Shown here: one piece after another, positions 22,403 through 23,805 of the stretch
How the letters are laid out: each line of letters begins with the position of its first letter
How positions within the stretch are numbered: the stretch's first letter is position 1
DNA from: Escherichia phage MirsaeidiM_Esher1
Sequence record: PQ438048.1
Length of the DNA stretch: 64,000 nt
Reading direction: 5' to 3' (one strand)
Notes under the pieces: generated by a model
Told to the model about the DNA's origin: nothing
Database searches by the model: none
What the model saw: the letters and a program-made list of their open reading frames with translations, nothing else
Position numbers and translations under genes: made by a program

Positions 22403-22969
22403 ATGAAAGTAAAGAAGACAAGTATTGAAGGGGCAGTCGTCATTACTCCCGATGTTTACAAAGATGATCGTGGCTTTTTCTTGGAAACATATAACGAAGA
22501 AAAGTATGCAGATATCATTGGTAAACAAACGTTCGTTCAAGATAACATGTCTAAATCAAACTTCGGTGTTTTACGAGGAATGCACTTTCAAACAAATAAC
22601 CCGCAAGGTAAGCTTGTTCGTTGTGTAAGTGGAGAAGTATTGGATTTCGCTGTAGATCTACGTAAAGATAGTCCAACTTACGGTGCTTGGGACGGTGTTG
22701 TTCTTCGTGCACGACACCATACGCAGTTTTGGCTTCCACCTGGTTTGGCACATGGCTTTATAGTTTTGAGTATGGATGCTATCTTTGAATATAAATGCAC
22801 AACTCCATACGACCCTTCTAGCGAACAAAGTTTACGTTGGGATGATCCTGATATAGGGATTGATTGGGGCTTCGATATGATTTTTGATGAAGGTTTTAAA
22901 CCTATTCTATCAACAAAAGATGCAATGGCTAAATCTTTTCAACAGTTACGTAGTGAGGGTGTATGCTAA
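22403..22969 (+). CDS. rmlC: dTDP-4-dehydrorhamnose 3,5-epimerase-like (RmlC cupin)
   Basis: N-terminus ...VITPDVYKDDRGFFLETYNEEKY resembles RmlC ...FGDERGFFMETFN (from memory); AAGGGGGGAG RBS. Confidence 0.7.
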   Translation: MKVKKTSIEGAVVITPDVYKDDRGFFLETYNEEKYADIIGKQTFVQDNMSKSNFGVLRGMHFQTNNPQGKLVRCVSGEVLDFAVDLRKDSPTYGAWDGVVLRARHHTQFWLPPGLAHGFIVLSMDAIFEYKCTTPYDPSSEQSLRWDDPDIGIDWGFDMIFDEGFKPILSTKDAMAKSFQQLRSEGVC

Positions 22970-23805
22970 CATATCTGGTATTGGGTGGTAATGGACAACT
23001 GGGACAAGCTTTACGTAAAGTGGCTCCTTCGAATGTATCTTTAATTTATCCTAAAGAACGGGTAGATATTACAAATTTTGAAGCTGTGCGAAACGCTATT
23101 ATTGAAGATTATGTAGATGGTGTTATTAATTGCGCTGCTTATACGGCTGTAGATAAAGCTGAACAGGATTTTGCTACAGCTTTGGCTGTTAATGCTTATG
23201 GCCCTGCAAATATTGCAGCAGTGTGCAGTAAACTTAAAATCGATTTTGTGCATATTTCTACAGATTATATTTTTAATTCTTCTCAACCTATTTTTGAAGA
23301 TACTACACCTAACCCTATAAATAATTATGGATATACGAAAGAACTTGGTGAAAAAATGGTGCGAGGAGTTAACCCAAATGCATATATTATTCGAACAGCC
23401 TCCGTATATAGTGAATTTGGAAGTAACTTTCTAAAAACTATGTTGTCTCGCTATAATGATGGACAACGTGATTTTATTATTGTTGCTGATCAGTTCTCTT
23501 GTCCAACATATGCTCCAGATTTAGCAGAAGCTATTTTTGAAGTATTAAAAACAGGTTGGTCAAGGTCTGTTAAGACTTACCATTTTGCAGGAAGCCATCT
23601 TATTTCTTGGGCGGAGTTTGCGGAAAAGATCTTGACACAGATGCCAGAACCTGTTAAGATATCGGCGGTATCAGCTTCAACCTATAATGCTCCAGCAGCA
23701 CGTCCGGTGAAGTCACAACTAGTAACCAGTCACTATCTTACAAAATCAGATTTAAATAAAGGTATTGAACAGTCTTTAGCAGTATTACTTAATAAGGAGA
23801 GGTAA
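22963..23805 (+). CDS. rmlD: dTDP-4-dehydrorhamnose reductase-like (RmlD)
   Basis: Rossmann N-terminus LVLGGNGQLG; VINCAAYTAVDKAE matches RmlD core motif. Confidence 0.7.
   Translation: MLTYLVLGGNGQLGQALRKVAPSNVSLIYPKERVDITNFEAVRNAIIEDYVDGVINCAAYTAVDKAEQDFATALAVNAYGPANIAAVCSKLKIDFVHISTDYIFNSSQPIFEDTTPNPINNYGYTKELGEKMVRGVNPNAYIIRTASVYSEFGSNFLKTMLSRYNDGQRDFIIVADQFSCPTYAPDLAEAIFEVLKTGWSRSVKTYHFAGSHLISWAEFAEKILTQMPEPVKISAVSASTYNAPAARPVKSQLVTSHYLTKSDLNKGIEQSLAVLLNKER

Follow-up and report, generated by a model that had tools for sequence, protein, structure and literature searches.

The 64,000-nucleotide stretch of Escherichia phage MirsaeidiM_Esher1 DNA analyzed here (record PQ438048.1; called the window throughout) carries two adjacent genes, rmlC and rmlD, whose predicted products are the last two enzymes of deoxythymidine diphosphate (dTDP)-L-rhamnose synthesis. 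We consider it likely that these genes encode a working pair that would make dTDP-L-rhamnose from a host intermediate, most likely for the phage's own glycosyltransferases. RmlC and RmlD would be expressed together with the phage ribonucleotide reductase, glutaredoxin and ThyX nucleotide-supply genes. The intermediate, dTDP-4-keto-6-deoxy-D-glucose, would be a host product, made either by RfbA/RfbB or by the RffH/RffG enzymes of enterobacterial common antigen synthesis; RmlC would epimerize its C3 and C5, and RmlD, using NAD(P)H, would reduce the keto group at C4 to yield dTDP-L-rhamnose. The infected cell would gain a route to this sugar nucleotide that is independent of host rfbC/rfbD. Its most likely users would be a phage cluster of four soluble glycosyltransferases, located outside the window, which would assemble a glycan containing rhamnose on an acceptor in the cytoplasm, with a phage protein as the first guess.

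The features on which this proposal is built are as follows:

22403 to 22969, plus strand: rmlC, dTDP-4-dehydrorhamnose 3,5-epimerase, 188 amino acids, ATG start at 22403
22963 to 23805, plus strand: rmlD, dTDP-4-dehydrorhamnose reductase, 280 amino acids
22393 to 22402, plus strand: GGGGGGAGAG, the ribosome-binding site of rmlC, as seen in the DNA letters themselves

The start of rmlD overlaps the stop of rmlC, and the stop of rmlD overlaps the ATG of the glutaredoxin gene. The original prediction, made from the letters of the DNA alone, had placed adjacent RmlC- and RmlD-like genes at 22403-23805; the open reading frames (ORFs) lie exactly there, and both proteins pass equivalog cut-offs. 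In Pfam profile searches, RmlC matched PF00908 (E=1.7e-66, 223.6 bits against a threshold of 27) and RmlD matched PF04321 (E=4.9e-74). RmlC scored 222.9 bits against the NCBIfam equivalog TIGR01221 (cut-off 155.75; model positions 1-174 of 176) and also matched phrog_8784 (1.1e-91), and RmlD scored 239.4 bits against the equivalog TIGR01214 (cut-off 224.05) and fell below the cut-off of NF007440, the enterobacterial RfbD model (118 vs 308). Sequence searches of the PDB returned solved RmlC structures at 1e-55 and solved RmlD structures at 6e-44; 3-epimerase entries were also among the matches of RmlC, since some related cupins are mono-epimerases. As both proteins clear equivalog-level models, neither is assigned to an unrelated cupin or short-chain dehydrogenase/reductase (SDR) family, the outcome that the original prediction had named as fatal to it.

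The residues expected of active enzymes are in place. In an alignment with E. coli RfbC and the phage alleles of phi92, KP2025 and phiWec179, H61, K70, Y130 and D173 of RmlC were invariant, and we take them to correspond to the catalytic His63 (base), Lys73, Tyr133 (acid) and Asp170 (His-Asp dyad) of Salmonella RmlC. The GxxGxxG motif of RmlD (G8, G11 and G14), its SDR residue T100 and the Y122/K126 pair of the YxxxK motif were likewise invariant in an alignment with E. coli RfbD and phage alleles. At the level of sequence, the assignments of rmlC and rmlD are therefore confirmed with catalytic residues intact, and we infer that both enzymes would be active. The assignments are already public, and their novelty is low.

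Over 24 kb, the window shares approximately 97-98% identity with many Phapecoctavirus genomes (phAPEC8-like E. coli myoviruses of the Stephanstirmvirinae); it corresponds to approximately 46-110 kb of phage anhysbys in reverse orientation. All 15 rmlC and rmlD alleles that we examined are intact. When the window is compared with its close relatives, the ratio of nonsynonymous to synonymous substitution rates (dN/dS) is 0.04-0.06 in rmlC and 0.07-0.15 in rmlD. It lies at 0.04-0.27 in every allele pair with estimable dS, phages that carry only rmlC and rmlD (rmlCD-only) included, and at 0.12-0.15 for anhysbys paired with KP2025, a very distant phage that is also rmlCD-only. Judged by these ratios, rmlC-rmlD is under strong purifying selection.

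The two preceding enzymes of the pathway appear to come from the host. A tblastn search of the 64-kb window with phage RmlA gave no match (best E=1.7), and phage RmlB gave just an SDR cross-match to rmlD itself, which bears out the original statement that RmlA and RmlB are not in the window. In the whole anhysbys genome, no rmlA was found by tblastn (E=0.23), and the RmlB query again cross-matched just rmlD; the rml locus of KP2025 is also without rmlB-rmlA, and the annotation beneath the rmlCD match of four related Klebsiella records contains neither gene. A phage without RmlA and RmlB would need dTDP-4-keto-6-deoxy-D-glucose from its host. In Enterobacterales, rffG and rffH are part of the shared pathway for enterobacterial common antigen. 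With phage rmlB-rmlA DNA as the query, a homologous locus annotated rffG/rfbA or rfbB/rfbA was present in 5423 of 5426 complete E. coli genomes, at a median of one place per genome. Thus, rmlCD alone should be enough for dTDP-L-rhamnose synthesis in hosts with rffG/rffH-type genes, including those without rfbC/rfbD. We infer the host origin of the substrate in this way, and the link to the glycosyltransferases and the acceptor are put forward on the same conditional footing.

The locus is well kept among relatives. In phAPEC8, anhysbys, phiWec179/188, PsgM04F, phi92 (Justusliebigvirus) and Klebsiella phage KP2025, the order is nrdA, a variable part, nrdB, small ORFs, a 108-aa ORF, optional rmlB-rmlA, rmlC, rmlD, grx, a small ORF, lysozyme and phoH. 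The rmlC-rmlD pair is present in every genome inspected, at a site between nrdB and glutaredoxin; Citrobacter phage Tr1 likewise has rmlC-rmlD. Both genes were annotated in phAPEC8 (2012) and in dozens of relatives, and all told over 100 public phage genomes have them annotated. The window has the architecture of anhysbys, ESCO37 and ZCKP1, without rmlB-rmlA, and the rmlCD-only form occurs in at least two deep lineages; for ESCO37, the lack of the thymidylyltransferase and dehydratase genes was noted in a 2023 study (PMC10269720). In the literature on these phage rml genes we found annotation and speculation, and no functional work. As a separate observation, records labelled as Campylobacter, Acinetobacter or Pseudomonas phages (MG065650.1, MG065645.1, OP562383.1, OR584014.1 and others) are 90-98% identical to coliphages at the rml locus; mislabelled hosts or contaminated preparations may explain this.

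In contrast to the retained pair, rmlB-rmlA comes and goes. It is present in approximately 42 of 64 close Phapecoctavirus records (duplicates counted). In phAPEC8, it forms a 1.9-kb cassette between the stop of the 108-aa ORF and the ribosome-binding site of rmlC, bordered on each side by the ribosome-binding repeat GGAGA. Amino-acid identities between phAPEC8 and phiWec179 set the cassette apart from its neighbors:

RmlB: 94%
RmlA: 97%
RmlC: 63%
RmlD: 65%
Glutaredoxin: 76%
NrdB: 89%

In 100-base windows, the nucleotide identity of these two phages is approximately 0.81-0.95 across rmlB-rmlA, a tract whose limits coincide exactly with the rmlB start and the rmlA stop, and 0.57-0.75 in rmlC-rmlD. 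We read rmlB-rmlA from these comparisons as a dispensable mobile cassette that is exchanged horizontally between lineages, with rmlC-rmlD as the retained core. In Phapecoctavirus DIJ07P2, an 802-bp deletion takes the 3′ end of rmlB and most of rmlA and leaves rmlC and rmlD open (deletion point approximately 3408-3416; the missing stretch is 5057-5858 of the sequence compared); unless it is an assembly error, it looks like cassette loss under way.

The pair does not seem to be a recent acquisition from the host. The identities of 47% (RmlC to RfbC) and 31% (RmlD to RfbD) to the E. coli enzymes rule out recent capture, as does the drop of RmlD identity from a phage-only clade (at least 50%, on 140-157 kb contigs) to bacterial proteins (at most 45%). 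The phage rmlBA DNA is just 64-68% identical to the E. coli loci. The region immediately upstream has a history of its own:

22050 to 22550, plus strand: divergent mosaic patch spanning the 108-aa ORF and the first approximately 50 rmlC codons
22059 to 22385, plus strand: 108-aa ORF with a GTG start, phrog_15453 (4.1e-41), without a Pfam match

Within the patch, nucleotide identity to anhysbys and phAPEC8 is 57-70% (84% in the final 100 bases), compared with 92-100% in its flanks, and no closer match was found among 50,697 phage records. Over the first 50 rmlC codons, the window differs from anhysbys at 29 of 150 bases and 7 of 50 residues. The 108-aa ORF lies directly upstream of the rml genes in phAPEC8, anhysbys, phiWec, phi92 and KP2025; the allele of the window is 55% identical to that of phAPEC8 and 78% identical in amino acids to that of phiWec. 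A separate origin of the window rmlCD, suggested by identities of 96% and 90.5%, was rejected as an artefact of megablast extension through the patch. Downstream of it, the window is equally close to the four-gene and rmlCD-only architectures.

The candidate users of the sugar are four adjacent putative glycosyltransferase genes that complete relatives carry between primase/helicase and a SleB-type hydrolase. In anhysbys, these are gp013-gp016 (10294-13438), approximately 75 kb from rmlCD. Two of the predicted enzymes are of the GT-A and two of the GT-B type, and gp013 and gp014 are paralogues (41% identical). The AlphaFold model of the gp013 type has a GT-B fold (mean predicted local distance difference test score [pLDDT] 93), and its top 50 PDB fold matches are GT4-type GT-B enzymes such as BshA, MshA, PglA, GtfC/Gtf3 and SdgB. 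The gp015 model has a GT-A fold (mean pLDDT 89) with an invariant DDD motif, and its top 50 fold matches are generic GT-A glycosyltransferases and sugar nucleotidyltransferases. These fold matches are generic and uninformative on donor or acceptor, and a PDB sequence search with gp013, gp015 and gp016 gave nothing significant. The gp016 protein has a DTD motif and matches phage glycosyltransferase PHROGs. No transmembrane segment was predicted in any of gp013-gp016. In the window, no glycosyltransferase was found by tblastn with the four enzymes of the relatives or by Pfam scans of 20 ORFs, which include ten larger ones without informative annotation in relatives. Across the 50,697 phage records, holders of RmlC and of gp015 number 105 and 106 for Escherichia and 8 and 9 for Klebsiella, and 64 records reach at least 95% identity in both searches. 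This co-occurrence supports a functional link between the rml genes and the glycosyltransferases.

Small temperate phages of enterobacteria have a glycosyltransferase cassette (GT-A, GT-A, GT-B) in common with the big myoviruses of the Stephanstirmvirinae. In four small-phage sequences, it occupies 5589-7670, 9394-10969, 10001-12019 and 7227-10733, the last adjoining GT2, GT_PLOD and a weak, truncated DegT/DnrJ/EryC1 aminotransferase match. Its positions include the following:

Serratia prophage contig: between lysis genes and terminase
Lambdoid phage: flanked by the Q antiterminator region and by the lysis cassette
P22/Sf6-like phage: flanked by the terminase and portal genes

These late or structural positions, together with weak matches of gp015 to mycobacteriophage enzymes, make a phage protein our first-guess acceptor. 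We offer, as a possible but doubtful elaboration, a split pathway in which the host intermediate, the phage RmlC and RmlD and the four-glycosyltransferase cassette put a rhamnose-containing glycan on a phage protein, for example a virion component, and in which rmlB-rmlA is a flux booster traded between lineages. If true, this would be the first described glycosylated-virion system in phages of Enterobacterales.

Several observations weigh against a rhamnose supply for these glycosyltransferases. The margin of RmlD over the TIGR01214 cut-off is just 15 bits. The glycosyltransferase cluster is known from relatives, the window being just the part that matches 46-110 kb of anhysbys, and because the co-occurrence is confined to one subfamily, it may amount to little more than one evolutionary event. 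Moreover, gp016/gp015/gp014-like cassettes are found in small temperate phages without rml genes in their 10-kb flanks; in seven contexts outside the big myoviruses, no rml gene lies within 10 kb of the cassette, the weak DegT/DnrJ/EryC1 match beside one of them being the sole hint of a linkage. Phage rml genes are therefore not an intrinsic requirement of these glycosyltransferases. The GT-B members are similar to retaining GT4 enzymes, whose usual donors are UDP- or GDP-sugars. The first-guess acceptor has a point against it as well: no Ser/Thr-rich C-terminal tail was found in the major head and tail-tube proteins of anhysbys.

The original prediction had named three possible targets of the sugar: phage DNA, a virion protein and host surface polysaccharide. 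Remodelling of the host envelope is an unlikely use, albeit one with points in its favor. More rhamnose could reach the O-antigen/lipopolysaccharide rhamnosyltransferases, or dTDP-4-keto-6-deoxyglucose could be drained from common antigen synthesis; the surface would change during infection and, for example, exclude other phages or trap less progeny. RmlC competes with the common antigen pathway for the same intermediate, the rffG/rffH-type genes of the host are near-universal, and lipopolysaccharide core glycosyltransferases are also soluble or peripheral GT-A/GT-B enzymes. The rml genes of cyanophages and other phages adjoin other sugar genes. However, the phages propagate on K-12, which makes no O-antigen, and a short lytic cycle leaves little time for a surface change. 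Envelope remodelling also leaves unexplained why two thirds of the relatives carry rmlB-rmlA, which would replenish the intermediate.

Glycosylation of phage DNA with dTDP-rhamnose, as T4 glucosylates hydroxymethylcytosine, would evade restriction and was proposed by Olsen et al. 2020 (PMC7552041). Both the rml genes and the glycosyltransferase cluster lie among replication and nucleotide-metabolism genes, and gp015 has a sub-threshold match to the TET-associated glycosyltransferase (TAGT) family (E=0.0011). We disfavor this use, and regard it as improbable, because these phages and their relatives are reported to be exceptionally sensitive to restriction-modification systems (PMC8594841; PMC10844046), no hydroxymethylase was found and the two modelled folds are not T4-like. 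Of enzymes of the thymidylate-synthase type, just ThyX was found; anhysbys has no annotated hydroxymethylase or TET/JBP gene, and none was matched among the ORFs scanned, a scan that left out many small ORFs. The GT-B model matches GT4-type enzymes, not the T4 alpha- or beta-glucosyltransferase, and in lambdoid and P22-like phages the homologous cassettes lie among late or lysis genes.

There is a similarly slim chance that the pair makes a different dTDP-6-deoxyhexose, such as dTDP-6-deoxy-L-talose by the opposite C4 reduction. The narrow pass of RmlD, its distance from E. coli RfbD (31%) and from any bacterial RmlD listed (at most 45%), and an insertion of approximately 9 residues near the C-terminus of the phage RmlC clade, which E. 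coli RfbC is without, would fit such a product. However, the rhamnose-pathway equivalog models are the best matches of both proteins, every named bacterial homologue is annotated RmlD, and the catalytic and nucleotide-binding residues are canonical. Finally, a non-functional remnant left by deletion of rmlB-rmlA from a four-gene operon, although suggested by the four-gene form in close relatives and the partial rmlBA deletion of one genome, is highly improbable: the 15 intact alleles, the low dN/dS (0.04-0.15 for the window against eight close relatives that are also rmlCD-only, and similarly low between anhysbys and KP2025) and the sparing of residues relative to bases in the divergent patch argue against decay, as does the rmlCD-only form in separate deep lineages.

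The production of dTDP-L-rhamnose for the phage's glycosyltransferases remains our preferred reading. The genes that flank the pair in the window are as follows:

17190 to 19436: nrdA
20472 to 21560: nrdB
23805 to 24065, plus strand: glutaredoxin (NrdC-like; PF00462, 1.8e-09; phrog_22)
24228 to 24728: T4-type lysozyme
24715 to 25524: PhoH

The setting originally described, with the rml genes between nrdB and the NrdC-like glutaredoxin and lysozyme in a nucleotide-metabolism module, holds. No plus-strand terminator-like site was predicted between 20128 and 26758, so rmlC-rmlD is probably co-transcribed with nrdB, glutaredoxin, the T4-type lysozyme and phoH; a promoter scan of the locus gave nothing informative. 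An NT5C-like deoxynucleotidase (14797-16413, plus strand; PF06941, 26.7 bits against a cut-off of 24.8) lies directly upstream of ThyX and, with ThyX, nrdAB and glutaredoxin, makes up a thymidylate-supply block adjoining the dTDP-sugar genes.

Other features of the window were recorded in passing. An HNH homing-endonuclease-like ORF (19445-20104, plus strand; phrog_953, 1.2e-56) lies between nrdA and nrdB and is followed by a strong terminator-like hairpin at 20111-20128; in phi92, gp074 at the corresponding place is 84% identical to it, and anhysbys has no counterpart of window positions 19396-20461. An HslV/20S-proteasome-like peptidase ORF (26060-26752, plus strand; phrog_1040, 9.7e-64) is followed by a terminator-like hairpin at 26758-26773. 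A 225-aa ORF at 43636-44313 on the minus strand, among small early genes of this lytic phage, begins with a domain of the serine-recombinase (Resolvase) family (PF00239, 5.4e-18). At the left end are three tRNA genes (Ser-GCT, Arg-TCT and Met-CAT; 222-788, minus strand), and the GC skew changes sign at approximately 36-37 kb, where gene orientation goes from plus to minus.

With their broad host range, phages of Phapecoctavirus and Justusliebigvirus are candidates for use in therapy and biocontrol, which lends the fate of the sugar some practical weight. If it decorates virions, immune recognition, stability and host range would be affected; if it modifies DNA or the host envelope, it would matter for the evasion of defences and the exclusion of superinfecting phages. 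Dependence on host rffG/rffH or rfbA/rfbB is expected of the rmlCD-only phages and not of their four-gene relatives.

Among known systems, T4-type DNA glucosylation likewise places a phage sugar-transfer capacity amid nucleotide-metabolism genes. In contrast to T4, no hydroxymethylase was found here among the ORFs scanned, the modelled folds are not T4-like and relatives are restriction-sensitive. Glycosyltransferases that act on virions are described in mycobacteriophages (Che8 of cluster F1; Freeman et al. 2023, cited in PMC11256854). Against the annotated glycosyltransferases of 256 cluster-F-type mycobacteriophages, gp015 gave weak tblastn matches (24-29% identity over 52-78% of gp015, E of approximately 1e-6 to 1e-7), a remote likeness that may reflect the shared GT-A fold alone. 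In small enterobacterial phages, the homologous cassettes have head, terminase or lysis genes as neighbors; in contrast to the Che8 type, no glycan is reported on these coliphages. The mycobacteriophages, for their part, are not known to carry rml genes.

The bacterial RmlA-RmlB-RmlC-RmlD pathway (rfbBDAC of E. coli and Salmonella) uses the same enzyme families and catalytic residues as RmlC and RmlD of the window, and the four-gene phage relatives encode a complete bacterial-type dTDP-L-rhamnose pathway. In contrast to bacteria, the phage studied here has the last two steps only, its RmlD falls in a phage-only clade, and its genes lie in a nucleotide-metabolism operon rather than in a polysaccharide gene cluster. 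The closest known counterparts are the rml genes of phAPEC8 (genes 100-103) and phi92 (genes 064-067), which have the same locus and order from nrdB to glutaredoxin and also include rmlB and rmlA, both missing here. RmlC and RmlD of the window are 96% and 98% identical to those of phAPEC8, and compared with both phages the window has its own divergent allele of the 108-aa ORF and of the 5′ end of rmlC.

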